A stretch of DNA of 62,860 nt, the filler included. It is 5 parts of 5 records of this genome, joined end to end, with 100 filler letters (N's around TTAATTAATTAA, not from the genome) between each part and the next. Parts side by side here need not be neighbours in the genome. Positions count along the whole stretch, not along the records: positions 45,156 to 53,953 come from SRR20825006_254; 4 more parts are not named here. One strand, given 5' to 3'. The position numbers were made by a program, and so were the translations under genes. Below the pieces are notes generated by a model. The model was not told the DNA's origin. It saw only the letters and a list, made by a program, of their open reading frames with translations, and searched no databases. Position 1 is the first letter of the stretch; every line of letters begins with the position of its first letter. This document shows, one piece after another, positions 45,056 to 60,661 of the stretch.

Positions 45056-45155
45056 NNNNNNNNNNNNNNNNNNNNNNNNNNNNNNNNNNNNNNNNNNNNT
45101 TAATTAATTAANNNNNNNNNNNNNNNNNNNNNNNNNNNNNNNNNNNNNNNNNNNN
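45056..45155. other. Artificial contig linker
   Basis: N-run + TTAATTAATTAA + N-run. Confidence 0.99.
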
Positions 45156-45940
45156 AGGTTCATCTTGGCCAGTTTGTAGGTGGTGCTGGTTTGCTCCTGA
45201 CCGTAGATGGAGATGTCTTTCTTGTTGCCCTGATGGTTGTCGATAAACTTAACGGACTGCACGAACATGCCGCCCGAGCCACAACAAGGGTCGTAGATTT
45301 TGCCGTGGTAAGGTTCGATCATTTCCGCCAGCAGGTTAACCACGCACTTGGGAGTATAGAACTCGCCCCCGCCCTTGCCTTCGGTGGCGGCAAACTTGCC
45401 CAGGAAGTACTCATACACCCGCCCGACAATATCCAGCTCGCTGGCGGCCTGCTGCTCCGGGCTGGCCATATCGCTGCGCACCAGGGTGTCGATATTGTTA
45501 ATGGAGTCGATCAGCGCCGACAGCTTGCTCACATCAATACCCAAGCGTGAGAAATAGTTGTCGGGCAAGGCGCCTTTCAGTGCGGGGTTGTTCTTCTCCA
45601 GAGTGTGCAGGGCAGTGTCGATTTTCACCGCGATGTCGTCTTGCTTGGCCTGCTTCTGGATAGATGACCAGCGGGCCGCTTCCGGCAGGTAGAACACGTT
45701 TTTCATGGTGTAGAACTCCACCATGTCCACATAGTCGCCCTGCCCCTCGTCGATAAGCTGCTGCTTGCGCTGTTCGAAGGTGTCACTCACAAACTTGAGG
45801 AAGATCAGGCTGAGCACCACGTGCTTGTACTCAGAGGACTCCACCGTACCGCGCAGCTTGTCGGCGGTGTCCCACAGGGTTTGCTCAAAGCTTTTTTGTT
45901 TAGCGGGGGCTTTCTTCTTGGCGCTTGTCGTCCTGGCCAT
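45156..45940 (-). CDS. hsdM: Type I restriction-modification methyltransferase M subunit (3' truncated)
   Basis: LWDTADKLRG, GRVYEYFLGKFA..EGKGGGEFYTP, IYDPCCGSGGMF, IYGQE. Confidence 0.97.
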
Positions 45941-46247
45941 ACTGCTTCCTTATGCTGCCATATAAGTGTGGCATGGGGTGTTGTGATTAAGCCAAGAATT
46001 GTAGCAGTAATCGTTACTGACTAGGCAACGCTATACGCCACAACCGAACGCTCCCAGCTGCACCACCCCACCCTGAGGCGTGCAGCGCCCAGTGCCCCAA
46101 GTCGGGAGTGACGAATGAAGCCGGTGAAGGCCAGGCAGCGACGGTGCGGCGGAGCCGCCCTAGCTGCACTGGCCAAGCCTGCTGAGTGATGAGCGAGCGG
46201 CGCTGGGAGCACGGCGGCGAGGCACGCCGCTATTAATAAACCAAGAG

Positions 46248-46321
46248 ATTTAACATAGGACTGATTATGTGGCGAACGCAGACAGTGCTCGCACTGCACA
46301 TAATCCCGTCTTATGTTTAAC
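46248..46321. other. Inverted pair of dif-like (XerC/XerD) sites
   Basis: ATTTAACATAG-GACTGA-TTATGTGGCGA (46248-46275) and ACTGCACATAA-TCCCGTC-TTATGTTTAAC (46293-46321); compare E. coli dif GGTGCGCATAA-TGTATA-TTATGTTAAAT. Confidence 0.65.
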
Positions 46322-46342
46322 CTCGCAGGCCATTATTTGTGT

Positions 46343-46392
46343 AAAAAAAGAGACTCCAGATACACGCCTGAGCGGCGGTATCTGGAGTCTCT
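46343..46392 (-). terminator. Terminator of radC
   Basis: 15-bp stem AGAGACTCCAGATAC/GTATCTGGAGTCTCT with a T-run on the minus strand. Confidence 0.8.
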
Positions 46393-46402
46393 GATGAGTG
46401 GT

Positions 46403-46894
46403 TTATAAGCGCCCTTCTTGAGCTAGGGAGCAACAGCCCGTGTCACCCACCACGATATGGTCAAGTACTCGCACATCGACTACACCGAGGGCTTCTCTGA
46501 GCTTACGGGTGATACGGATGTCGGCATCGCTGGGGTCAACTTTTCCTGATGGATGATTGTGAACCAGTATCACTGCTGCCGCATTAAGCTCAAGAGAGCG
46601 ACGTACCACTACGCGTGGGTGAACGCTGGCACCATCTATGGTGCCCCGGAACAGGCGCTCAAAGGCAATCATGCAGTGCTGGTTGTCGAGAAAGATGCAG
46701 CAGAATTGCTCGTCCCTTTCTGCTGAAACCTGGAGGCGGCAGTAGTCTTTAACAACTTCAGCTGAGGTGAGTTGCTCTCCTTTCTTCAGTCGGTCACCGA
46801 GTATTTCAATCGCTGCTTCGACGACCTGGCGTTGATTGTGAGATAAGTCGGCGAAGTATTGAGGGGCCTTGGTTTCATTGAGTTCGTTGATCAC
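46403..46894 (-). CDS. radC: RadC-like JAB/MPN domain protein (short mobile-element type)
   Basis: EQFCCIFLDNQH, LFRGTIDGASVHPR, HNHPSG..PSDADIRIT, LDHIVVG; RBS AAAGGAG. Confidence 0.95.
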   Translation of the reverse strand: MINELNETKAPQYFADLSHNQRQVVEAAIEILGDRLKKGEQLTSAEVVKDYCRLQVSAERDEQFCCIFLDNQHCMIAFERLFRGTIDGASVHPRVVVRRSLELNAAAVILVHNHPSGKVDPSDADIRITRKLREALGVVDVRVLDHIVVGDTGCCSLAQEGRL

Positions 46895-46935
46895 GGTAGC
46901 TCTCCTTTGCGGTACGTACTGCGCTGAATTGCGCG

Positions 46936-46956
46936 TCCTTATTTGCGCGTGAGCGC
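46936..46956 (-). promoter_or_regulatory. Hairpin promoter-like motif, copy 1 (upstream of radC)
   Basis: Plus (template) strand TCC-TTATTT-GCGC-GTGA-GCGC; near-identical to copy 2. Confidence 0.55.
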
Positions 46957-47008
46957 CAAGACCGTCGTGTGCGAGCTGGCTACAGGTGGAGACTGTCTGA
47001 GATGTGTA

Positions 47009-47028
47009 GAAAAAAGCCCCGAAGGGCT
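47009..47028 (-). terminator. Terminator of the 58-aa gene
   Basis: Minus strand AGCCC-TTCG-GGGCTTTTTT directly after the TAA. Confidence 0.85.
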
Positions 47029-47204
47029 TAGATAGATGTGAGTTCTTTTAATCGCGCTTGACGCTTAACAGTGGCCTCGTCGGCGAAGCTTGCCGCTTCT
47101 TCCTCGGCCACTCGGGCGAGGTGTTCAAACGCTGTGGCACCACGCTCAGCTGCACTGCACAGGGTGGTAAGGGTTGCCCATATCTGAGCGATAAAGTTCC
47201 GCAT
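47028..47204 (-). CDS. 58-aa helical phage-like hypothetical protein (not in ORF track)
   Basis: MRNFIAQIWATLTTLCSAAERGATAFEHLARVAEEEAASFADEATVKRQARLKELTSI; RBS AAGGAG 7 nt upstream; own terminator. Confidence 0.82.
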   Translation of the reverse strand: MRNFIAQIWATLTTLCSAAERGATAFEHLARVAEEEAASFADEATVKRQARLKELTSI

Positions 47205-47226
47205 TGGTATTCTCCTTGGTTTGGTT

Positions 47227-47247
47227 TCCTTTTGTGCGCGCGAGCGC
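47227..47247 (-). promoter_or_regulatory. Hairpin promoter-like motif, copy 2 (upstream of 58-aa gene)
   Basis: Plus (template) strand TCC-TTTTGT-GCGC-GCGA-GCGC. Confidence 0.55.
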
Positions 47248-47363
47248 TATGAGGTGAAGAGCAAGACTAGAGGGGGGGTACCTCAAAAACCTGTGTTTTG
47301 AGGAGCGTTACTAGGGCCGTAGGCAGGTGAGCAATTTCTGAGAACCCGCGAGCCGAGTTAGGC

Positions 47364-47532
47364 TATCGCCTGATATCGCCGTTTTGCTTGTTTAGCGGTG
47401 AGTTAGAATGTCGGTAGTGAGGTACCAAGCTTGTCTTGAAACCAGAAAGCACAGGCCAGCATGGGTGTAGATAGAATATCGGTGTATATCGGTTGAGTGC
47501 TCGATAGGGTTAGCCTATCGGTGTGTATCGGT
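47364..47532 (+). repeat. Three pairs of 10-bp-phased TATCG repeats
   Basis: TATCGCC at 47364/47374; TATCGGT at 47477/47487 and 47516/47526. Confidence 0.75.
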
Positions 47533-48037
47533 ATGCACTAAAACGCTGACCGCAGAGCCACTCTGCCCCCTACGAATACATAGCGCACCAAAATAAAAAT
47601 CCCTGTAAATCAATAACCTACACGCTGCCTATATATAAGGGGGACTCCAGCCCCTCCCTTCCGGGTGGCCGGTCCTATCCCTCCGGGCTAGGAACGTCCT
47701 TTGGCACACTCGATGAGTGCCCCCACGGGGCACCATCTCCTGACCATCAAGGTCATTCCCTTCCCTCTCCCTCTGAAGCCAGTCACACCTAGCCGACACG
47801 CAGAGTGCCCCAAGGGTTCGCGCAGCGAAGCCCGCCGGGAGCACGGATTGCGTGGAGGTTTGGTGTGGGAGGAGAATATATTTATAAATAAAGCAGATTT
47901 TTCTACGTACTGAGGTTCGTCACGCTACCTCCGTGACTGGCGCGGCGTCCGCAAGCGGAGCCGCTTGTCACTCGTAGCGTTCCTCACCGCCTAGGGCAGG
48001 CCAGAGAAAGCGGAAACATGGCATTACCCTACCTGGC

Positions 48038-48222
48038 AACTGCTACAATACAACATATCTTTAAATTCAATGAGTTACAGGACACGCAAGTGCGACAGAT
48101 AATGCGACAGGCCCACGACAAGTTATTGGTGTTGTACTCATGTCGAGCTTTTGTTGTGGACTTGTCGCACTTTGGCTTCCCGCTATCCCTTACATAGCGG
48201 GAGTTGTAGCGATGTAGCAGTT
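48038..48222. repeat. Nested inverted repeats downstream of DUF3631 (putative replication origin)
   Basis: AACTGCTACA/TGTAGCAGTT, AAGTGCGACA/TGTCGCACTT, CCACGACAA/TTGTTGTGG, TCCCGCTA/TAGCGGGA. Confidence 0.7.
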
Positions 48223-48225
48223 CAA

Positions 48226-49557
48226 TCAGTCAGTGAGATACCGGGCGAAGGCATCATCAAACTGGTCCCGTTCATAGCCCCTCCGAACTCCGTCAGCGAA
48301 ACGTATGTCTTTCGTCTTGATATTGAACGCCCCGAGAAGGCGTGCAATTGCGTGGGCTGTGATGTTTCCTCCACCACGAAAGGATCGCCATGGCTTAGTA
48401 TCGTCAGCACACAGTGCAGTTCTTAATTCACTTGAGCTAATACGATCCCCATTATGCCCCCGCCAAATTTCCTGTATGTCCATTAACAGGCAGCCTTTGG
48501 TGTCCGGCTCAGGTATGTCCGTGATGTCCCGATAAGCCCGATCGCAGCGAGTTAACCAGTCGCCTCCAATGACCTCAGCAACCTGAAACAGAGCGTGCCA
48601 GTTATCGATTGCCCTATCGCTGCCAATATTGGGAGGTTGCACCCGACACTGCTCAACTGCCGCCCGATTATCTAGACACCAACGAAGGATCTTTTGTCGA
48701 GATGGCTTGCATGTTTCAACCAAGTTATTTGGGGGGCTCTGCACCCGCTCAGTAGCAAGCTTGCGGCGAAGATTAATAACTATACTGCGATCCATGATGG
48801 TCGGTGCTAAGTCGCCTATCGACCCTAGCGCCATAGGCATCCAGGCGCTGTAGCCACCGGCATCATGACTGTCACCACTGCACCGCAGAATCACAGAGCC
48901 GCTTCGCGTATGGCCTGCATTCAATATGTTGATGAGTGGTGAGTCACCAGATCGAATTAAAGAGTCTGCTTCATCCAAAAATAGCGTTGGTTGGAAGCTC
49001 TCCGTCATCCGAAAGATCACCGCTGGAGATACATTTGATGACATCACGCAGTCCCTCGCGAAAGCACTTACGACCTCCATTGTGGTCGTTTTGCCGCATC
49101 GCATCATAGGGCTCCGGAAGAAGAGCTTTCCAAACACCCTGAACGAGTTGATGAGGTAACTGGCAAACAGCCACAGGACGATGGCATCAATTTCTCTTTG
49201 TGTTAAGACACAGTGCCTCTGGATAAAATCAGCAATTTCATCAGCCAATTTGGTCCCATCAACTTTAGCTGGCCAGGCATTGAGGTCTTCAGGTATCTGT
49301 CGAACGACTGGCGCTAGTTCGTCAGCACTGGCTTTCTCGCTAGAGCATTGCTCGTTGCCTTTCCTTGTACCTGTAGATTCTAAGCCTGGGGTTATGGGCT
49401 CTGGAGGCGGAATATCCGCCTCCAATGTGTTACTTTCACTTGTGGGGGTATCACTCATAACGGTCTTATCCTCGTTCAAAATTAGGGGCTGTTTCTGCTG
49501 CCAGGCGGGCAGCCCCTTCTCATTTTCTGGTTTCAGTTTGTCTGCGTGCATCGGCAT
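48226..49557 (-). CDS. DUF3631-domain P-loop replication protein
   Basis: SPMMRCGKTT Walker-A-like, PTLFLDEAD Walker B, TIMDRSIVINLRRK, DRAIDNW, C-terminal RGYERDQFDDAFARYL. Confidence 0.85.
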   Translation of the reverse strand: MPMHADKLKPENEKGLPAWQQKQPLILNEDKTVMSDTPTSESNTLEADIPPPEPITPGLESTGTRKGNEQCSSEKASADELAPVVRQIPEDLNAWPAKVDGTKLADEIADFIQRHCVLTQREIDAIVLWLFASYLINSFRVFGKLFFRSPMMRCGKTTTMEVVSAFARDCVMSSNVSPAVIFRMTESFQPTLFLDEADSLIRSGDSPLINILNAGHTRSGSVILRCSGDSHDAGGYSAWMPMALGSIGDLAPTIMDRSIVINLRRKLATERVQSPPNNLVETCKPSRQKILRWCLDNRAAVEQCRVQPPNIGSDRAIDNWHALFQVAEVIGGDWLTRCDRAYRDITDIPEPDTKGCLLMDIQEIWRGHNGDRISSSELRTALCADDTKPWRSFRGGGNITAHAIARLLGAFNIKTKDIRFADGVRRGYERDQFDDAFARYLTD

Positions 49558-49862
49558 TTAACCTCCCTTAAGAAATAGCGAGCCACGTTGTAGTGAGGGT
49601 GCCCGTCGCTGTCCAAAACAGTGCCGTATGTGACCGCTATGCATAACCCTCGCTCTCGTAATGCTTTGATTTTTTGGGGAGGCGCATGAACGCCTCCCTC
49701 ATGCAAATCGAAGGTTGTGACACCTCGATCACCAGCTTCAACAAGCATCGCGTATGCAAAGGCTTGCGCCCTTGGCAACCTGTCCCTATGGACGAGATAA
49801 GGGCATGACACAGTTAAGATTTTTGGCACAGCTGTAGTCGCGAGATAGGGAGACGTGATCAT
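49533..49862 (-). CDS. Winged HTH protein (HTH_39-like)
   Basis: VTTFDLHEGGVHAPPQKIKALRERG...DSDGHPHYNVARYFL; overlaps the alpA stop and DUF3631 start. Confidence 0.7.
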   Translation of the reverse strand: MITSPYLATTAVPKILTVSCPYLVHRDRLPRAQAFAYAMLVEAGDRGVTTFDLHEGGVHAPPQKIKALRERGLCIAVTYGTVLDSDGHPHYNVARYFLREVKCRCTQTN

Positions 49863-50080
49863 TGAGCCACCTCCTGGCCGCGTGCAGCGATACGTGATTC
49901 AATCCAATCGATTACCTCTTCCTCTACCCATCCCTTACTAGAGCCACCTGGCACTAGAGAAACAGGTTTGGGAAATTGGCCTTTCGATACCATGTGGTAA
50001 ACGTGAGACTTAGAGATTCCGGTAAGGTCACAGACTCGCTTCATGCGGAGTAAGCGTGGAGAGGTAGATGTTAGACTCAT
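49859..50080 (-). CDS. alpA: AlpA-family regulator/excisionase
   Basis: RLLRMKRVCDLTGISKSHVYHMVSKGQFPKPV..GWVEEEVIDWIESR. Confidence 0.95.
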   Translation of the reverse strand: MSLTSTSPRLLRMKRVCDLTGISKSHVYHMVSKGQFPKPVSLVPGGSSKGWVEEEVIDWIESRIAARGQEVAQ

Positions 50081-50253
50081 AAATAGTCACCTATATTTGG
50101 TTAAAAAAACGTCCATTGAGGTCCATAGACTGAACAGGACAACTATATGCTGAGCCAATCAAAAAGCGTTTTCTGAGTTTTTTTGCCTTTTGGAGCAAAA
50201 ATATTTACGGCAGATATCTATGAAAAACAGGCGGGGTTCTGTTACGGAGCTGA

Positions 50254-51465
50254 CTATTCGTCCCGGAGCTTATCTAGGTAGTCAGCCCACTCTTGCATCA
50301 TCTTGATGCGCTCGTCCATCAGCTGGGCTTTGTTGTAGGTAGCGCGAATGCGGTCTTTGTTGACGTGGGCCAACTGCAGCTCTATCGCATCGGGTGAGTA
50401 CCCCATCTCGTTGAGAAATGTGCTCGCCGTATGACGAAAGCCGTGGCTGGTCATGAAACCAGTGCCATAGGGTTTGTTGGTTTTGGGGTTAATAAGCCGC
50501 TTAATAGCCATAGTCGTGGTGTTCTCGCTCATTGGCTTACCATGACCGTGGCGAGTAACAAATACATAGGGGTGCTTACCAGTTAGGGGTTTCAACGCCT
50601 TCAGTATGGTTATTGCCTGGCGAGCCAATGGCACCTGCAGCTCCCTGCCGGCTTTCATTTCGTGTTTGGGGATCGTCAACATCGCGGAATCAAAGTCGAT
50701 ATACTCCCAACGCATATACCTTATGTTGAATGGCCGAAGAAATAGCAACGGCATCAACTGCAGAGCATAGCTAGTGACCGGGCTCTGGCGAGCCGCCGGC
50801 TGATGTATTTGCTTGATCAAGTTCGCTAGGTCCTCTTTTTCAGTAATATGCCCAAAGTTGCCTTTTGTTCGGTGATCAGGCTTTGGCAGTAATTCTGTGA
50901 GGCCCTGTGCGGGGTTGTTCTCTATGACACCGAGTATCAGCAGCTCGTTGAACACATGCCTGAGAATGCCGGCCATGCGTTTTGCTGTCTCACGAGCACC
51001 TCTTTCAGCAATCGGGGTGAGAATCTGCAACAAGTCTCGGGTGCTGTATTGGTCAACACCTTTTTTATCCAAAGAGGGGTAGATATTGGTTTCTAGACGC
51101 TGCACAAGATCAATGCGGGTTGTCTCGGCATAGTTCTGTTTTTCGATCCAGAGCTTGGCAAAATCACTGAAGCGCTGTTGGCTGGCCTGCTGCTTAGCCA
51201 CCCTCTCCCTTTTAGCTTCGGTAGGGTTAAGCCCTTCTGCAACCATCTTGCGCGCCTGCAAGTGGGCCTCACGTGCTTCTGCTAAGGAGTACTCAGGGAA
51301 TGCGCCGATGGTGTACGTCGCCCTCTTCCCGCCCAAGCGATAGTCATACTTCCAGGACTTGGCGCCTGAAGGGCGGACACTCAAGTAAAGGCCCCCACTA
51401 TCGGTCATCTTGTATGGCTTGCTTTGAGCTTTTGCGTTGCGCACTGCAGTAGCTGTTAATGGCAT
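50254..51465 (-). CDS. Tyrosine integrase, P4-like
   Basis: MPLTATAVRNAK..PYKMTDSGGLYL arm-binding domain; LFLRP, SHGFRHTAST, LAH, YNKA catalytic residues; start corrected to ATG 51465. Confidence 0.97.
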   Translation of the reverse strand: MPLTATAVRNAKAQSKPYKMTDSGGLYLSVRPSGAKSWKYDYRLGGKRATYTIGAFPEYSLAEAREAHLQARKMVAEGLNPTEAKRERVAKQQASQQRFSDFAKLWIEKQNYAETTRIDLVQRLETNIYPSLDKKGVDQYSTRDLLQILTPIAERGARETAKRMAGILRHVFNELLILGVIENNPAQGLTELLPKPDHRTKGNFGHITEKEDLANLIKQIHQPAARQSPVTSYALQLMPLLFLRPFNIRYMRWEYIDFDSAMLTIPKHEMKAGRELQVPLARQAITILKALKPLTGKHPYVFVTRHGHGKPMSENTTTMAIKRLINPKTNKPYGTGFMTSHGFRHTASTFLNEMGYSPDAIELQLAHVNKDRIRATYNKAQLMDERIKMMQEWADYLDKLRDE

Positions 51466-51502
51466 GAGCGTATGAATCCCGTCTTCACCGCCACACACTG
51501 GA

Positions 51503-51560
51503 ACCGTCAATGAGACCGTCACCGGAACCGTCAGGCGTGTCGGATGCTATAAAACCGTCC
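51503..51560 (+). repeat. Integrase arm-type binding repeats
   Basis: ACCGTCA at 51503, 51515, 51527 (12-bp period) and ACCGTCC at 51554. Confidence 0.7.
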
Positions 51561-51891: not shown

Positions 51892-53953
51892 TCAAGACTT
51901 GGGCACTGGCTCCAATTTGCGACGGAAGCTGCCCGAGATACGCACGACATTGTCGCCACCGGGCATGATTTGCTCACCGTCGATAATCAGCGCTGTGGCC
52001 TTATAGGTGCCGGTCACATAACCATTGTCATCGGTAAGAATTTCTACCTGACAGGCTGCACCATCCAGCGTCAGCTCTGCCTTGGCGTCACGATCATACT
52101 GCGTAGTCTGGTACAGCGCGCCAATCGCCTGCAGATTCACCTGCACCGCGCGATTGTCGGCACTGTTTACATCGGCGCAGTTATACACACCCACTGCACG
52201 CGGCATATTGATCACATCCAACTTGAGGCCTTTGCGGCGATCCAGGGTGCGATAACCGTACTGACTGTAAGAACTCTCATAGCTGTAAAGCTGATCGAAG
52301 GGGTCATAGATAAATTTGAAACGATCGCCCGTCTGCCAATGGCCGCTGCCGTCTTCAACACGCATGGTAATGCCGACTTCGTCGGGCGCCAGTTCGCCTT
52401 CGTCACCGCTGTCATTATCAGGGCGCGTCAGCACAACGGCATAGTTACGGAATTTGCCACTGATTTCCAAACGGCGATCGTCACCCTCCAATAAGTTTTC
52501 CTGGGCAAACAACGTCGCGGTGTAGCTAGCGTCATAGAATTTGCCACCACGCGACACGGTTACGATTTCACACTCACCACCGGCATCATCTGAGGTATAG
52601 CGTTGCTCCAGCAAATAGGTACCGACTTTTACCCACATGTGCATAGCGCCAGCACGATTTCGGTACTCGGTGCCACAGTGGTAGGTTGCATCCCCAGCAA
52701 AGCCACCCTGTGGCTGGGTGCCCGCATGCAGGCTCATGATATCGGAGGCATTGCCGGTAAACGGAGGCGTGCCGTCATCCGGGCTGGTACCGCCGAGACC
52801 AACAGGGTTATCCAACAGGAAGTGCTGATCTGAACCCAGTTCATAACTTGGATTATCGGCCAGTTCGATACTGCCAAAATAGTCCCGAGGCAAGTCACCC
52901 TCAAGTGTTCCTGGTACACCCTCGTGGTCATATACGCGGAACGGCACATTTTCAAGCTGAATAGCGTAGTCGTCCTTCTCCAGTGTGGCCGCAAGAATAA
53001 CGCCTTGAATACCCCCCAACTCGCTGACGTAGTCAGTGCGTAGCCTACAGTCGCTGGCCGTGTAATCGCCGCGATTAGCTGGCGCTCCGGTAACGGCATT
53101 CATTGACAGCACCATCTGTAGCTGATCGTCGCAGATTTGCTCGCCCAGAACATGAGGAATATTCAGATACATGGCCGCAGGCACTACGCCTTCGTACTCC
53201 GTGGTATCGATGTTGTTACGGGTATCGACATTAAACCGCAGCTGCCGAACACCACCCAACGTGGTATACACGCTGGCATAATCCAACAAATAGCGATAAT
53301 TACTGCCTGCAAACTTCAAGTAAGCGCCGTTCTTACCATTCAGAGAATCGTAAACCGGATTGTCGAGTTCGCCCGCGACACCACCGCCGCCGGTCTCGCC
53401 GCCGGTTTCACCGCCGCCGCTATTTTCGATCGTCGCCTTAAAGTAGCCATTGCTCACTACGCGACGAGGCTCCTCGCCCAAGAAATTCCCGGAGAAGTAA
53501 CCCTCGTAGACAGGGCCGGCCTGCACCACCTTAATCACGCAGTCGCCATTGTTCGAAGCCAGTCCTGACTGATCGAGATCATCGGCATTGATGTACTGCA
53601 GTACCGTGTCGTGGCCGTTATCGTCGCAGGAATAGGTGCCTATTGTTGCCGGCACGTGCACTCGCCACTTCTCGCGTCGCTCACTATCCAGCCCCTCGAG
53701 ATAAACCAGCCCGTTGCCGTTGTTACTTCTTAGGACATCGACAACATCGGTGAAGGTATAGCTCACTCCATCGATATCGCCAGTGAAACCATCGCCAGTG
53801 AAGCGGCCTTTGCCTTGATTATCGACTTCCGGGTCGGTTTGGCCGCCGGTTTCCCCGCCAGTCTCACCACCGGTTTCTCCACCAGACTCGCCTCCGGTAT
53901 CTCCACCAGACTCGCCTCCGTTATCTCCGCCAGTCTCTCCTCCGGTTTCTCCG
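51892..53953 (-). CDS. Large extracellular-type protein with GGET linkers and four Cys-pair beta domains (5' truncated)
   Basis: Frame is open from the contig end through a GETGGETGGDNGGESGG repeat into ORF 51892-53766. Confidence 0.85.
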
Positions 53954-54053
53954 NNNNNNNNNNNNNNNNNNNNNNNNNNNNNNNNNNNNNNNNNNNNTTA
54001 ATTAATTAANNNNNNNNNNNNNNNNNNNNNNNNNNNNNNNNNNNNNNNNNNNN
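53954..54053. other. Artificial contig linker
   Basis: N-run + TTAATTAATTAA + N-run. Confidence 0.99.
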
Positions 54054-55397
54054 TATCGCGATGCGGATTTGCGCATTCTGGTGCTGGCGGCCGATCTGGG
54101 ACTGGCGAAAAAGATGGTGCGCAATGTCAAGCGCGTGATCGAACGCCATCCGTTGCTGGTGGGGCTTCTGCCCGAAAAGCGGGTCGATTGGGGCACGCAG
54201 CGTTTTACGGTCGAGCGACCGGGCGTATTGCGGGATCCGTCGATGCAGGCGGCGGGAATTGGCGGCAATATCACCGGGTCGCGCGCCGATGTGGTGATTT
54301 GCGATGATGTCGAGGTGCCCAAAAACAGCGATAGCGCCCATAAACGCGCCGAATTGCGCGAGAAGCTGGGCGAGATTGCCTATGTCCTGTCGCCCGATGG
54401 CACGCAGATTTATGTCGGAACCCCACATAGCTATTATTCGATCTATGCCGACGAAATCCGGGCCGAAACCGGGGAAACCGCCCCGTTTCTGGCGGGGTTT
54501 GAGCGGTTCTGCCTGCCGATCCTGGATGAACAGGGGCAATCGAACTGGCCAGAGCGGTTTCCGACCCTCAAGATCGAGGAAATCCGCACCCATACCGGGG
54601 AGCGGAAATTTGCCAGCCAGATGATGCTGAAGATGCTGGCCCCCAGTGACGGGATCCTCGACCCCGCGCGGTTGCACCGTTATGGCGATGATGCGGTGAT
54701 CGAGCAGGCCAACGGGGCGCTTCGGCTGTCGATTGCGGGGCGGCGGATGGTGGCGGGCGCATGCCATTTTGATCCGAGCTTTGGGGCCAGCGGGGGCGTA
54801 CCTGGTGGCGCAAATGGGGGCGCACATGATGGCGCGGTGATTGCGTGCGTTTATGTCTGCGAGCGCGGGGAATACTGGCTGCATGATATGGCGTGGCTGA
54901 CATTTGATCCGACGCGCCTGCATGAGGCCGATGAAGCCAGCCAGATTTGTGCCAAGGCTGCAGCATTCATCCGGCAGAACCATTTGCCGTCGGTGCGGGT
55001 CGAGACCAATGGCGTCGGGCGGTTTTTGCCCAATATCCTGCGCCGCGCCTTGAAGCAGGCCGACTGGGCGGCAAGTGTGGTGGAGCATCACGAGGCGAAA
55101 AACAAGGATGCGCGGATCGAGGATGCATTTGGCGCGGTGTTGAGTGCGGGGTTGCTGCATGCGCATGCGCGTATCTGGCAAACGCCGTTCATCCGTGAAA
55201 TGCGCGAATGGCGACCCGGCGAGGGACGGGGGCGGGGAAGGAGCAAAGCGGGCCAGCATGATGACGGGCTGGATGCGGTGGCGGGCTGCCTGATCCATGA
55301 GCCGGTGCGCCTGCCGCGGGTGGAAAAAGCCCGGTCCGGGGGCGACTGGCGGCCTGCCGGGGCGGCTTTTTCGGCGCGAAACGGGTTTCAGCCCTAA
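54054..55397 (+). CDS. Phage/GTA-type terminase large subunit (5' truncated)
   Basis: GGNITGSRADVVICDDVE Walker B, YVGTPH, nuclease FDPS, VETNGVG, HDDGLDAVAG. Confidence 0.93.
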   Translation, partial: YRDADLRILVLAADLGLAKKMVRNVKRVIERHPLLVGLLPEKRVDWGTQRFTVERPGVLRDPSMQAAGIGGNITGSRADVVICDDVEVPKNSDSAHKRAELREKLGEIAYVLSPDGTQIYVGTPHSYYSIYADEIRAETGETAPFLAGFERFCLPILDEQGQSNWPERFPTLKIEEIRTHTGERKFASQMMLKMLAPSDGILDPARLHRYGDDAVIEQANGALRLSIAGRRMVAGACHFDPSFGASGGVPGGANGGAHDGAVIACVYVCERGEYWLHDMAWLTFDPTRLHEADEASQICAKAAAFIRQNHLPSVRVETNGVGRFLPNILRRALKQADWAASVVEHHEAKNKDARIEDAFGAVLSAGLLHAHARIWQTPFIREMREWRPGEGRGRGRSKAGQHDDGLDAVAGCLIHEPVRLPRVEKARSGGDWRPAGAAFSARNGFQP

Positions 55398-55673
55398 AAA
55401 GTTTCGTGAATTCACAAATGCTTATGCAATCCGTCGATCACAAAATCGAGAAATTCATGGAAAATTCAATATTCGTGATTACCTTAACTATATGGTTGAA
55501 TAGTAATTGCGAAAATTAACTATACCAAGGAATAATTTGCATCCTTTGAGTCGATACGGGTTTGTTGCCGCAAGGCGCGGCGTTGGTCAATTTAGCAGTG
55601 CCGGAACACAAGACGCCCCTGCCGTTCATCCCGGGCGCACCGCACTGCCTGTCCCTTAAAGGAGGGCCTGACC

Positions 55674-56326: not shown

Positions 56327-56620
56327 ATGAGTGGACCGGTTGATCTGATCTGGTGGATTACGGCGGTGGAAATTCCCGCCGTGGCGGGGCTTTTCTGGCT
56401 GAACTGGCGGATGCGGAGCGAGCTTTCGGCGCGGCTGGAAAGCCAGCGCGAGGGCCATGACGCGGAGATGATCGCGCTTCGCGATGGCTTGGCGGACTTC
56501 AAGCTTGATGTGGCGCGAAACTACGTTTCGATCCCGTACCTTAAAGATATTGAAAAACGCCTGACCGCGCATCTGCTGCGGATCGAGGCGAAGCTTGATC
56601 ACAATGTACCGGCAGCGTGA
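56327..56620 (+). CDS. Single-TM coiled-coil protein (phage lysis-region type)
   Basis: RBS AGGAGG before ATG 56327; WWITAVEIPAVAGLFWL TM; FKLDVARNYVS..YLKDIEKRL. Confidence 0.8.
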   Translation: MSGPVDLIWWITAVEIPAVAGLFWLNWRMRSELSARLESQREGHDAEMIALRDGLADFKLDVARNYVSIPYLKDIEKRLTAHLLRIEAKLDHNVPAA

Positions 56621-56652
56621 GGCCGGTTTTGAACCCTAGAAAGGAAACAGCG

Positions 56653-57108
56653 ATGAATGATGTTCTGATGATGGAAGCCGTTGCCGACCCGCAGGAATTG
56701 CCGGTCGCCGAGGTGCTGGCAAGGACGCTTTATGGTGAGGCGCGCGGCGAGGGTTTGCCGGGGATCGAGGCGGTGGCCTGCGTGATCCTGAACCGGGTGG
56801 CATTTGCCAAAGCGCGCGGGCGCTATTGGTGGGGCAATACGGTGTCGCAGGTGTGCCTGAAACCGGGGCAGTTTTCCTGCTGGAACGCGGGCGATCCGAA
56901 CCGGGTGAAGTTGCTTAAGCTCAGTGCGCGCGACCCGGCATACCGGCTGTGCAAGCGGGTGGCGACACGGGCATTGGCCGGGGAGATTGCCGACATGACC
57001 CAGGGGGCGACGCATTATCACACCCATGCGGTTGATCCCTATTGGGCGCGCGGACAGGTGCCGGTGGCCGAGATTGGCGGGCATCTGTTTTTCAAAAACA
57101 TAGGGTGA
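56653..57108 (+). CDS. Cell wall hydrolase (SleB/Hydrolase_2), putative endolysin
   Basis: LARTLYGEARGE, VILNRV, QFSCWN, GATHYH, IGGHLFF. Confidence 0.93.
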   Translation: MNDVLMMEAVADPQELPVAEVLARTLYGEARGEGLPGIEAVACVILNRVAFAKARGRYWWGNTVSQVCLKPGQFSCWNAGDPNRVKLLKLSARDPAYRLCKRVATRALAGEIADMTQGATHYHTHAVDPYWARGQVPVAEIGGHLFFKNIG

Positions 57109-57123
57109 ACGTAAAGCCCCATC

Positions 57124-57720
57124 TCAATTGGCGATAAAGGCCCCGGACCACATATGGGCGATGTTCTGGAACGGGACGGGCTGGGTGAAATAGGCCAGCG
57201 GATCATTGATATAAAGTACTGCTGTCGGCCCCATCGGGGTTTGCACCCATGCCATGCCGCGCAGAACCACAACATGCCCGGAATAGGGGGTGTTTTGCAG
57301 TTTGAGGATGATGGCGCGACCCGATGCCAGGGTGTTGTAAAGCACCATCGGATGGGCGGGCATGCCGTAACCTGCGGCATTGTTGCTGACCAGGCTTAGC
57401 AATTGCATGATTTCGGGGTCCTGTCCGGTGCGCACGCATTGCTGTGCCAGCATCGGATTGGCGTTCACCGCGGCAGCATTGCAGCAAAACGGCTGCGGCA
57501 TGCCGTTTGCGGCGGAGACAAGCTCGCACTGATGCGGCGATGAATTGGGGGAGGTCTGGCTTTTCCAATGGGCGATCTGTTCGACCACGGCGACCCAGCA
57601 CCAGACCTGTGTCTGTTGCGGGATATTGACAATGCCAAGGTCAATCGGCGGCGGGAGCTGCTGCGCGGTGGCCTGATTCATCCCCAGAAACAGTAGCACT
57701 GCGGCAAGAAGTCTTTTCAT
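57124..57720 (-). CDS. Secreted papain-like cysteine protease (C39/C70-like)
   Basis: Signal peptide; PQQTQVWCW, GHVVVLRG, YINDP catalytic-triad pattern. Confidence 0.75.
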   Translation of the reverse strand: MKRLLAAVLLFLGMNQATAQQLPPPIDLGIVNIPQQTQVWCWVAVVEQIAHWKSQTSPNSSPHQCELVSAANGMPQPFCCNAAAVNANPMLAQQCVRTGQDPEIMQLLSLVSNNAAGYGMPAHPMVLYNTLASGRAIILKLQNTPYSGHVVVLRGMAWVQTPMGPTAVLYINDPLAYFTQPVPFQNIAHMWSGAFIAN

Positions 57721-57866
57721 GGCGGCCCCCTGATATCCCCTGTATTAAAACGCGAACATTAGATTTGAAAAATAAATCTATTGGTTTTTTATTTTCGCGT
57801 CAATTCATTCAGGGTTGTGTTGGCGGGGCGAGGAAACCGGCATTTTTAAAAGGAAGGAGGTATCAC

Positions 57867-58367
57867 GTGATACCAGCATTACTGGCACAGATCGGCCTGC
57901 CGCTTTTGATGAAGGCGGTCGGCGCGGGGCTTGAAACCATTGATCATCCGGTCGCGAAAACCGCGGCCGAGGGGCTTAAACAGGTGGGGGATGCGGTGAC
58001 CAAGGGCGATGTCACGCCCGCCCAGATCATCGAGGCCAACCGCCATTCCGAACGCATGGCGGAAATCGAGCTTTCGCGGGACCGGAGCGTTTTGGCAACC
58101 GTCAACCGCACCATCCGGGCCGAGGTGCAAAGCGAGGATGCGTTTGTGCGCCGCTGGCGACCGAGCTTTGGCTATGCGGTGGCACTCACCTGGATCATGA
58201 CCATGGGATCAATTGCGGCCGCCATCATCTTAACCCCGCTTCAGGCCCCGGCGATTATTGCCGCATTGGTCAATACCAGCCCGATCTGGGGCATTGCGCT
58301 GGGCGTTTTGGGGGTCAGTGTGGTGAAGCGGAGTGCGGATAAGAAGATCGGAGAGGGTGGCGCGTGA
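57867..58367 (+). CDS. 3TM-type holin (GTA_holin_3TM-like)
   Basis: RBS AAGGAGG before GTG 57867; NRTIRAEVQSEDAFVRRWRPSFGY, GVSVVKRSADK. Confidence 0.8.
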   Translation: MIPALLAQIGLPLLMKAVGAGLETIDHPVAKTAAEGLKQVGDAVTKGDVTPAQIIEANRHSERMAEIELSRDRSVLATVNRTIRAEVQSEDAFVRRWRPSFGYAVALTWIMTMGSIAAAIILTPLQAPAIIAALVNTSPIWGIALGVLGVSVVKRSADKKIGEGGA

Positions 58368-59887: not shown

Positions 59888-60214
59888 TTAAGTGTTTTGT
59901 GTCCTCATGGGGGACCAATAATCCTGCCTTCCATGTCGTATATGCAGGACTGAAACCTGATCTTCCTCGACACAATAAAACACCCGCCAAGGCGTTCCGC
60001 GCCCATAGAGCAATTGCCGGATTTCACTATCGAAGGCGTTACTTTCCGGGGCAATTGCGTGGGCAAATGGGAAGGTTTTCAGGTTCATTACAGCTTCTTG
60101 CAAGCCATCCCGCCACTGATCGGCATAGAGCGGGTTTTCTTCCTGCAGCCAGTCATAGGCCGCAATGATATCCGCGACGGCCTTGGGCGATATGACGACC
60201 CGATAATGCTTCAT
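59888..60214 (-). CDS. RelE/ParE-family toxin
   Basis: YRVVISPKAVADI, IRQLLYG..WRVFY, VSVLHIRHG. Confidence 0.92.
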   Translation of the reverse strand: MKHYRVVISPKAVADIIAAYDWLQEENPLYADQWRDGLQEAVMNLKTFPFAHAIAPESNAFDSEIRQLLYGRGTPWRVFYCVEEDQVSVLHIRHGRQDYWSPMRTQNT

Positions 60215-60489
60215 TTATGCCGGGTGGAGAGGTCGTCAAAGAAGCTTTCCGCGTCCTGTCCCTGACCGTCGGCAATCTGGTTCAGGCCTGTGCGGATGCC
60301 CGCGACCGTCTCGTTATATTCCAGACGATTTTGCATGTCCTGCCACGCCTTGGCATCCATCACCACCACCGATGCCTTGCCATTGACGGTCAGGATTGCG
60401 GGTTGCTGCGTTTCACGCAGGCGTTTGGTGAAGGTCGCCGTATCGCGTTTGAATTCGGTCAGCGGGCGAATATCCTTGGTGATATCCAT
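60211..60489 (-). CDS. Phd/YefM-family antitoxin
   Basis: MDITKDIRPLTEFKR, PAILTVNGKASVVVMD; ATGA overlap with the toxin; start corrected to 60489. Confidence 0.92.
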   Translation of the reverse strand: MDITKDIRPLTEFKRDTATFTKRLRETQQPAILTVNGKASVVVMDAKAWQDMQNRLEYNETVAGIRTGLNQIADGQGQDAESFFDDLSTRHK

Positions 60490-60661
60490 ATTTGCACCTT
60501 TAAAGCATCGAATTGAATGCGAATTTAGCATGTTTTTCGTGGTGGTGCGATGGAAATTCCCGGTGAAACGTCAATGCTGGCTTGGCCCACCCTGAAACAA
60601 ACCCGCCCGCCCCGCGTTGCAAAGGCAACATCATTGTGCAAACAGGCAGCGAGGATTTGGC

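Follow-up and report, generated by a model that had tools for sequence, protein, structure and literature searches.

The 62,860-bp stretch of DNA analysed here (the window) includes a segment of an integrative island of a marine Alcanivorax in which two copies of a 21-nt hairpin motif head two consecutive genes, orf58 and a short radC-like gene (hereafter radC). Both genes lie on the minus strand, and the plus strand is the template for both motifs. The original prediction, arguing from resemblance alone, had likened the two motifs to the promoters read by the virion RNA polymerase (vRNAP) of coliphage N4. In minus-strand order, the elements of the segment are as follows:

47281..47293, minus strand: CAGGTTTTTGAGG block, matching a conserved left-end block of N4-like phages (cAGGTTTTTgGG in loci L240, L243 and L244)
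47272..47280, minus strand: TA followed by a run of seven C (TACCCCCCC), matching the (T)ACCCCCCC run that N4 and N4-like phages have ahead of their first hairpin promoter
47227..47247, minus strand: hairpin motif copy A, coding strand GCGC-TCGC-GCGC-ACAAAA-GGA, proposed vRNAP-type promoter of orf58 with proposed +1 at 47229
47028..47204, minus strand: orf58, 58 aa, belonging to the family of the first early gene in N4-like phages
47008..47029, minus strand: intrinsic terminator, AAGCCC-TTCG-GGGCTT and a T run, overlapping the orf58 stop codon
46991..47009, minus strand: CTACACATCT-CAGACAGTC box, directly 3' of the orf58 terminator, as in N4-like loci
46936..46956, minus strand: hairpin motif copy B, coding strand GCGC-TCAC-GCGC-AAATAA-GGA, proposed vRNAP-type promoter of radC with proposed +1 at 46938
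46403..46894, minus strand: radC, a short RadC-like JAB-domain gene, 163 aa (PF04002, E 5e-43)
46349..46392, minus strand: radC terminator, formed by a perfect inverted repeat of 15 bp and the T run behind it

The two copies of the motif (TCCTTTTGTGCGCGCGAGCGC at 47227-47247, copy A; TCCTTATTTGCGCGTGAGCGC at 46936-46956, copy B) are identical at 18 of 21 positions and share the coding-strand consensus GCGC-TCRC-GCGC-6 nt-GGA. Checked on the sequence and against shuffles, their positions and identity are as originally described, and so is their placement on the template strand just 5' of the ribosome sites of consecutive genes, both on the minus strand. Their description as identically spaced is right for the internal spacing, the spacer from stem to GGA being 6 nt in both copies, but the distance to the genes varies: from the final A of GGA, it is 22 nt to the orf58 ATG (47204) in copy A and 41 nt to the radC GTG (46894) in copy B. 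The copies have the same orientation, AGGAG-type ribosome sites are present at both genes and each gene has its own terminator. The flanks of the two motifs differ completely, while the stems and GGA are perfect in both.

When both strands of the window were searched with a degenerate 21-mer (up to 3 mismatches), exactly two sites were found, copies A and B (expected 0.00), and none of 100 dinucleotide shuffles of the window gave two matches. The 12-nt hairpin core alone is unremarkable: allowing up to 1 mismatch, it matches 3 times where 2.45 are expected, and a count of 3 was reached in 48 of 100 shuffles. The signal is therefore the whole unit formed by stem, loop, stem, 6 nt and GGA. For the template strand taken as single-stranded DNA, the hairpin with a 4-bp stem and a 4-nt loop is the minimum-energy fold at both motifs (-4.9 and -5.1 kcal/mol; z-scores of -2.5 and -1.5), and the loops, GTGA and GCGA, are of the G-N-N-A kind. 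The two start-region G's lie at 12.5 and 13.5 nt from the hairpin centre. No sigma70-like site, i.e. -35 and -10 hexamers at a spacing of 16-18 nt 5' of the genes, was found on the minus strand of 45900-48400, the sole site found being on the plus strand at 48074. A sigma54 promoter was rejected by eye (the GG is missing from copy A, and TGGCGC-N-GC is wrongly spaced in copy B).

For orf58, searches of Pfam, NCBIfam and PADLOC found no family, tblastn against phages gave no match and the ESM Atlas no usable one. Used alone as a protein query, it retrieved one near-identical relative, P0001, which differs at 3 of 58 positions. Scanning metagenome contigs gave three distant homologue loci. On one of them (L233, 5.8 kb), the homologue is followed downstream by an N4-like RNA polymerase (RNAP) subunit (phrog_2166, E 2.3e-96), which by tblastn hit 469 phage records; among the matches listed, the top ones are N4-like and some are annotated as RNAP1-like or RNA polymerase small subunit. 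An alignment query recovered five viral loci, with phrog_2166 on three of their five contigs. One complete phage genome (G077, 74,703 nt) encodes a 3418-aa open reading frame (ORF) that is a virion RNA polymerase (phrog_2206, E 0). In addition, the homologue from locus L232 matches gp31 of the cultured Schitoviridae phage Littlefix, which is the first rightward gene and adjoins genes similar to N4 gp69 and gp68. All seven homologous contexts for which DNA was available are early regions of N4-like phages, and in all N4-like loci the ORF that comes first past the conserved left-end region is the homologue, with a small GC hairpin ahead of it.

The relationship was also recovered in the opposite direction. 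A hidden Markov model built from the seven phage homologues only scored orf58 at 71 bits (E 4e-21) among 1240 ORFs of the window, the runner-up having an E of 2. The orf58 family comprises 131 proteins, many of them encoded by contigs 62-79 kb long. Within the bacterial class, 401 sampled genomes gave a single weak family match, inside a 628-aa frame. Two further viral loci, L156 and L157, were discarded as spurious homologues (a 28-aa match of 10 bits in an Ala/Arg-rich 612-aa frame, on contigs without an N4-like RNAP). Viral scans with P0051 and with the island's DUF3631 protein gave nothing. One of the N4-like loci, L240, belongs to a 73-kb record that IMG/VR classes as a provirus, and its first early protein, P0050, is ascribed by one source to a 405-kb contig of an uncultured Marinobacter; this may reflect either the integration of an N4-like phage or the binning of a phage contig with a host.

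Each N4-like locus has its own repeated version of the hairpin, confined to the coding strand (forward and reverse counts for L233, L232, L243 and L240):

L233: 4/0 copies forward/reverse, NCGC-tMtc-GCGN, 7 nt, GG
L232: 3/0 copies forward/reverse, GYGC-tcc-GCRC
L243: 4/0 copies forward/reverse, CNRC-tYc-GYNG-TTGNNAT-GG
L240: 4/0 copies forward/reverse, RCSC-ttc-GSGT-GTG
L244: 5 copies in the promoter alignment, RGCC-aNa-GGCY, 7 nt, GGA (GGG in one copy)

The design common to the phage hairpins is a stem of 4-5 bp, a loop of 3-4 nt, about 7 nt and GG. The promoters were aligned with MAFFT on GG without gaps, so that stems of unequal loop or stem length land in different columns; the spacer is 7 nt in 19 of 20 aligned phage promoters, the twentieth being ambiguous. 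The three hairpins of L232 (154-1446) have a loop TCC like that of N4 P2. In the complete phage genome, all four occurrences of the consensus in 74.7 kb fall in a 1-kb stretch just upstream of RNAPII; since RNAPII itself needs to be transcribed by the injected enzyme, these hairpins are early promoters. Like the window motifs, the four early hairpins of L233 (2060-4364), of the GCGC-tatc-GCGT type, depart from the textbook 3-nt loop; their 4-nt loops TATC/TCTC read GATA/GAGA on the template strand. The template loops of L233 and of the window thus all have the form G-N-N-A, and we infer that they are a four-base analogue of the N4 G-N-A loop with its sheared G:A pair.

The record of N4 itself (NC_008720) shows a C-run, then GTTGC-ttc-GCAAC-ttat-GGA and gp1, then GAAGC-tcc-GCTTC-tttt-GGA and gp2, which bears out the P2 promoter sequence given in the original prediction. 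According to PMC4496689, the N4 promoters are hairpins with a 3-nt loop, read at -11G and -8G after gyrase-driven extrusion and the action of single-stranded DNA-binding protein (SSB), and N4 early promoters placed on plasmids are transcribed in vivo in an SSB-dependent manner. Since plasmid-borne N4 promoters are transcribed in vivo, it is plausible that an injected polymerase acts in trans on resident DNA. For phage LUZ7, PMC9163698 describes early promoters with a stem of at least 4 bp and a 3-nt loop, starting at a G that is 13-14 nt away from the centre of the hairpin; loops of 3-4 nt appear there only in middle promoters, whose stems are of at least 6 bp.

The similarity to N4-like early regions extends to the non-coding DNA around orf58. 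In the phages, the left end is arranged as cAGGTTTTTgGG, 55-60 nt, (T)ACCCCCCC and the first hairpin; the same blocks are found in the window, from which the 55-60 nt between them are absent. CAGGTTTTT occurs once in the whole window, both strands considered, in the order and orientation of the phage loci. The window has only three C runs of at least 7, both strands considered, one of which lies ahead of copy A, and a C-run lies 5' of the first hairpin in L233, L240, L242, L243, L244, Littlefix and N4. On the other side of the gene, terminators with a TTCG loop occupy the same place in L232, L240 and L244 (the loop is TACG in L243). In L240, L242, L243 and L244, the first early gene is followed by a terminator, a T run and CTACAC/ACATCTACAC repeats, together with a GAGAnAG block. 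A search of both strands of the window gives a single instance of TACACATCT. As the flanking blocks stand in phage order round orf58, the homology spans the whole cassette, beyond the ORF. The CTACAC/ACATCTACAC boxes are located 10-80 nt past the stop codon of the first early gene in L240, L242, L243 and L244, and also directly after the terminator in the window.

Compared with known promoters of this type, the window motifs combine likenesses and differences. They share with N4 P1-P3, which are read by the injected gp50, the GC hairpin on the template strand, the short spacer, the GGA start, the C-run 5' of P1 and the layout of a first early gene followed by a terminator. In contrast, N4 stems are of 5-7 bp, with a 3-nt G-N-A loop containing -11G and a 4-nt spacer, against 4 bp, 4 nt and 6 nt in the window; moreover, the N4 promoters lie in a phage genome and the window motifs in a bacterial island, and gp1 is not detectably related to orf58. 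The LUZ7 promoters, mapped by ONT-cappable-seq, agree with the window in the stem of at least 4 bp and in the distance of the G start from the hairpin centre (13-14 nt against 12.5 and 13.5 nt), although the LUZ7 early loops are of 3 nt, and their starts are mapped whereas the window motifs are known from sequence alone. A further parallel lies in the early cassettes of uncultured marine and freshwater N4-like phages (L233, L240, L243, L244) and of Littlefix at gp31. These have the same gene family and the same succession of left-end blocks, hairpin, gene, TTCG-loop terminator, CTACAC box and next hairpin, and in L233 also 4-nt loops and nearly the same stem (GCGC-tctc-GCGT). Unlike the window, they have a 7-nt spacer followed by GG, they encode RNAPII (and G077 also vRNAP), and the gene after their second promoter is a phage gene, where the window has radC.

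Several properties that mark N4-type promoters are therefore shared by the window motifs: a template-strand GC hairpin with a stem of 4-7 bp (here 4 bp, the lower bound given for LUZ7), a fixed short spacer followed by a G start (6 nt and GGA in both copies), near-identical same-strand copies ahead of early genes or units (two copies) and linkage to Schitoviridae early genes (orf58 at E 4e-21 and the syntenic blocks). A 3-nt loop with a central purine (-11G) is not seen, the loops being of 4 nt. As the repeated hairpins of L233 also have 4-nt G-N-N-A loops, this feature varies within the family. Nor does the window, in which the motifs lie in a bacterial island, encode a giant virion polymerase.

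We conclude, with a probability of roughly 0.6, that the two motifs are N4-type (Schitoviridae) vRNAP hairpin promoters within a cassette of about 400 bp, taken by the Alcanivorax integrative island from an N4-like phage, namely from its left end, which is injected first. The original prediction is thus supported by the phage family of orf58, the phage hairpins, the non-coding synteny and the P1/P2 layout of N4. That the motifs descend from N4-type promoters is very probable; that they still work as infection-triggered promoters is somewhat less than an even bet. Read on the minus strand, the cassette would consist of the left-end blocks, a hairpin promoter, orf58, its terminator, the CTACAC box and a second hairpin promoter, the last now heading the RadC/JAB gene, which is followed by a type I restriction-modification (R-M) system.

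In the proposed mechanism, negative supercoiling would extrude the GCGC/GCGC hairpins with their G-N-N-A loops on the template strand. As the minus strand of 45900-48400 has no recognisable sigma70-like site, i.e. no recognisable promoter for the host polymerase, orf58 and radC would remain silent until a cognate N4-like phage injects its polymerase. Transcription would then start at the GGA 6 nt past each stem (47229 and 46938) and give two short monocistronic RNAs, each stopped at its own terminator. We infer that the hairpins are promoters with these starts, that they would act in trans on the chromosome and that some benefit may follow (infection sensing, decoy or satellite activation). 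More tentatively, the island may have wired its copy of the phage's first early protein and the RadC/JAB enzyme to the injected polymerase, so that injection would be sensed within seconds. On the side of defence, one may speculate about a decoy or dominant-negative early protein, or about titration of the few injected polymerase molecules that pull the genome in; alternatively, the effect could be a satellite-like activation of the island.

A number of observations weigh against this interpretation. The loop has 4 nt where the canonical one has 3, the stem has only 4 bp, and the 6-nt spacer departs both from the 7 nt of 19 of 20 phage promoters and from the 4 nt of N4. The generic architecture (4 G-C pairs, a 3-4 nt loop, 6-7 nt and GG) is matched 39 times on both strands of the window, so that by itself it proves nothing. 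N4 gp1 and orf58 have no detectable kinship (0.5 bits). There is no virion polymerase in the window, whose largest ORF is 900 aa, and the N4-like RNAP family was found in none of 70 genomes of the host family, although the same profile does detect this family in the phage contigs. The exact motif was found in 74 stretches of viral contigs, with one match each, which is about what our estimate gives for chance. radC is atypical for N4-like phages: for the best 47 of 72 viral radC loci, the contigs of one match the RNAP profile weakly and none strongly. Finally, sigma70 scans are weak evidence outside E. coli, and no transcript ends were seen in the data consulted, which are assembled contigs with an RNA run covering only the radC 3' end and the DUF3631 region.

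The search for a cognate phage gave little more. The original prediction had proposed a scan of phage genomes for the motif; beyond the 74 single viral matches, of whose contigs 71 were profiled, it revealed no cognate phage. The RNAP profile matched one of these 71 contigs, in a 907-aa ORF; this contig has one copy of the motif, located inside a 285-aa ORF. Of the few exact viral matches that lie ahead of a ribosome site, those in four of five contigs checked are single copies, and the fifth contig has 2 copies against 3 control matches. A scan with a pattern derived from L233 gave 10 single matches, a chance-like result. Neither did the wider segment 46300-48300 match any phage in DNA searches; against plasmids, it gave only 5 weak matches to radC, and against one genome (G001) a single radC match at 68%. 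Relatives of radC were collected from 80 genome loci and 72 viral loci, at no more than 59% identity, which is too distant to test conservation. In 81 radC loci (the 80 genome loci and L001), the core motif occurs three times, never just upstream of radC.

The surroundings of the cassette are those of an integrative element and comprise:

48226..51522, minus strand: island backbone, with a DUF3631 protein, a winged helix-turn-helix (HTH) protein, AlpA and a tyrosine integrase (domain matches)
47350..47540, no strand assigned: iteron-like direct repeats, a candidate island origin, in the 1-kb non-coding gap upstream of the cassette
45157..45940, minus strand: type I R-M methylase gene hsdM, cut by a contig joint (PF12161, PF02384; PADLOC MTase_I, E 3e-76)

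The minus-strand order is integrase (51522-50254), AlpA, winged HTH, DUF3631, about 1 kb of non-coding DNA with the iterons, the two units headed by the motifs, and hsdM. The iteron-like repeats, TAGAATATCGGTGTATATCGGT / TAGCCTATCGGTGTGTATCGGT and GAGTTAGGCTATCG / GGGTTAGCCTATCG, adjoin the DUF3631 gene. The product of radC carries the domain of PF04002 and TIGR00608; against the latter it scores 140.8 bits, above the cut-off of 133.85, and, lacking the N-terminal part, it falls short, with a score of 158.8, of the equivalog cut-off of 180.

A 15-kb metagenome contig (run X1) retains the cassette at about 97% identity. The flanks of 47988-49895 are also conserved at about 97%, and the 1906 nt at 47988-49895 itself, with the DUF3631 and winged HTH genes, are swapped for 1757 other letters. 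This suggests that island variants exchange their replication module, and since the cassette is kept while that module is swapped, the cassette is a stable cargo. In the RNA run, contigs cover 46344-46512 and 48149-49731, from which, as from the parts of the stretch that some runs leave uncovered, neither transcription nor silence can be read. The former is a 169-nt contig of a marine metatranscriptome (one study, about 96% identical) that covers the 3' end of radC and ends in the T run of its terminator; as an assembled contig, it is no sign of a transcript end.

On the side of hsdM, the segment stops at a run of N (45057-45156) bearing a TTAATTAATTAA linker in its middle, which we take to be a joint between contigs. 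Beyond it lie the 3' part of a tRNA-Met gene (anticodon CAT, by eye, cut by the joint; ARAGORN found no tRNA in the window) and rimP-nusA, and the island may adjoin rimP-nusA only through the order in which the contigs were joined. The products NusA and RimP belong to clusters at 90% identity in which the members with names are Alcanivorax. Just outside the integrase, 51892-55415 holds two large minus-strand ORFs (624 and 469 aa) without Pfam, NCBIfam, PHROG or PADLOC match where these were tested. Further on, a cell-wall hydrolase, a papain-like peptidase and a holin with three transmembrane segments (3TM) of the gene transfer agent type lie together at 56617-58367, and a ParE/Phd toxin-antitoxin pair at 59888-60531.

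Among the other explanations, the serious rival, unlikely though we rate it, is that the cassette is an inert relic. It would have been gained by recombination from an infecting N4-like phage, the hairpins would be fossils, and the genes, if expressed, would depend on the host polymerase acting from weak or read-through promoters. The failure to find a cognate phage or polymerase fits this explanation, and so does the loss of about 55-60 nt between the left-end blocks, which would reflect decay of the phage flank. The rarity of the orf58 family in bacteria (the one weak match in 401 genomes of the class) also leaves room for a one-off capture. Against decay, however, both hairpins retain perfect stems and GGA despite wholly different flanks, one of them heads a non-phage gene, and each unit keeps its ribosome site and terminator. 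Moreover, the cassette is about 97% identical in an island variant with a different replication module, and P0001, the sole close relative of orf58 from the single-sequence search, differs at only 3 of 58 positions. It is far less probable that the segment, instead of being carried by an unrelated island, represents the left end of an N4-like provirus, whether integrated or degraded. PMC10654107 does report integrated proviruses of the N4-like kind that have integrases, L240 is classed as a provirus by IMG/VR with its protein P0050 ascribed to the 405-kb Marinobacter contig, and the contig in the window stops 1.7 kb past the cassette. Yet the next gene downstream is a type I methylase, neither RNAPII nor another N4 early gene, the upstream AlpA, DUF3631 and iterons are typical of integrative islands, and the window contains no N4 hallmark gene.

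The remaining two explanations dispense with a phage polymerase. We consider it very doubtful that the motif is an operator of an island or host regulator, or an RNA element of the 5' untranslated region, i.e. a GC hairpin and GGA bound in the manner of CsrA together with the Shine-Dalgarno GGA. The RNA strand of each leader does combine a hairpin with an A-rich stretch and GGA, its ribosome site supplies another GGA, and several GCGC blocks in the radC leader permit alternative pairings. However, the motif is nearly absent from the host family (at up to 2 mismatches, 1 of 70 genomes, and 0 with the reversed-pattern control), and the cassette DNA (46895-47300) matched none of the 70 genomes, so that the motif is no element of a host regulon. 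In addition, this explanation needs an upstream promoter, of which none was found on the minus strand of 45900-48400, and it leaves unexplained the homology of orf58 and its flanking blocks to N4-like early regions with the same hairpin class. The last explanation, mentioned in the original prediction as what would refute it, takes the motif for a promoter of the Frpo or ssi type, active on single strands in a conjugative leading region. Leading regions of plasmids and of integrative and conjugative elements often contain RadC-like genes. An Frpo-type promoter is, however, a long imperfect hairpin that mimics -35 and -10 elements beside transfer genes. The hairpin here is only 12 nt long, the scanned island ORFs include neither a relaxase nor a transfer gene and the plasmid search gave only the weak radC matches, and we regard this explanation as hardly credible.

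If the motifs are N4-type promoters, the island can be compared with phage satellites such as P4 and the phage-inducible chromosomal islands (PICIs). Genes of these satellites respond to transcription activators or antirepressors of the helper that act on the host polymerase; we know of no satellite with promoters for a phage-injected polymerase. The Alcanivorax island resembles them as a resident integrative element with an integrase, AlpA, a replication protein and an origin that would respond to a factor of an infecting phage. It differs from them in that no capsid or packaging genes were seen. To our knowledge, hairpin promoters for vRNAP are known only inside N4-like phage genomes, and within a partial literature coverage, our searches turned up no description of them elsewhere.

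The class of promoter is thus known, and what appears to be new is its place: a bacterial integrative island, with one copy ahead of a non-phage gene beside a restriction system. If true, this would be an example from nature in which the injected enzyme of an invader serves a cell or mobile element as an alarm or a trigger. It would also offer a testable function for the short RadC of the island type and for the protein encoded first among the early genes of many marine N4-like phages, both of them orphan families.

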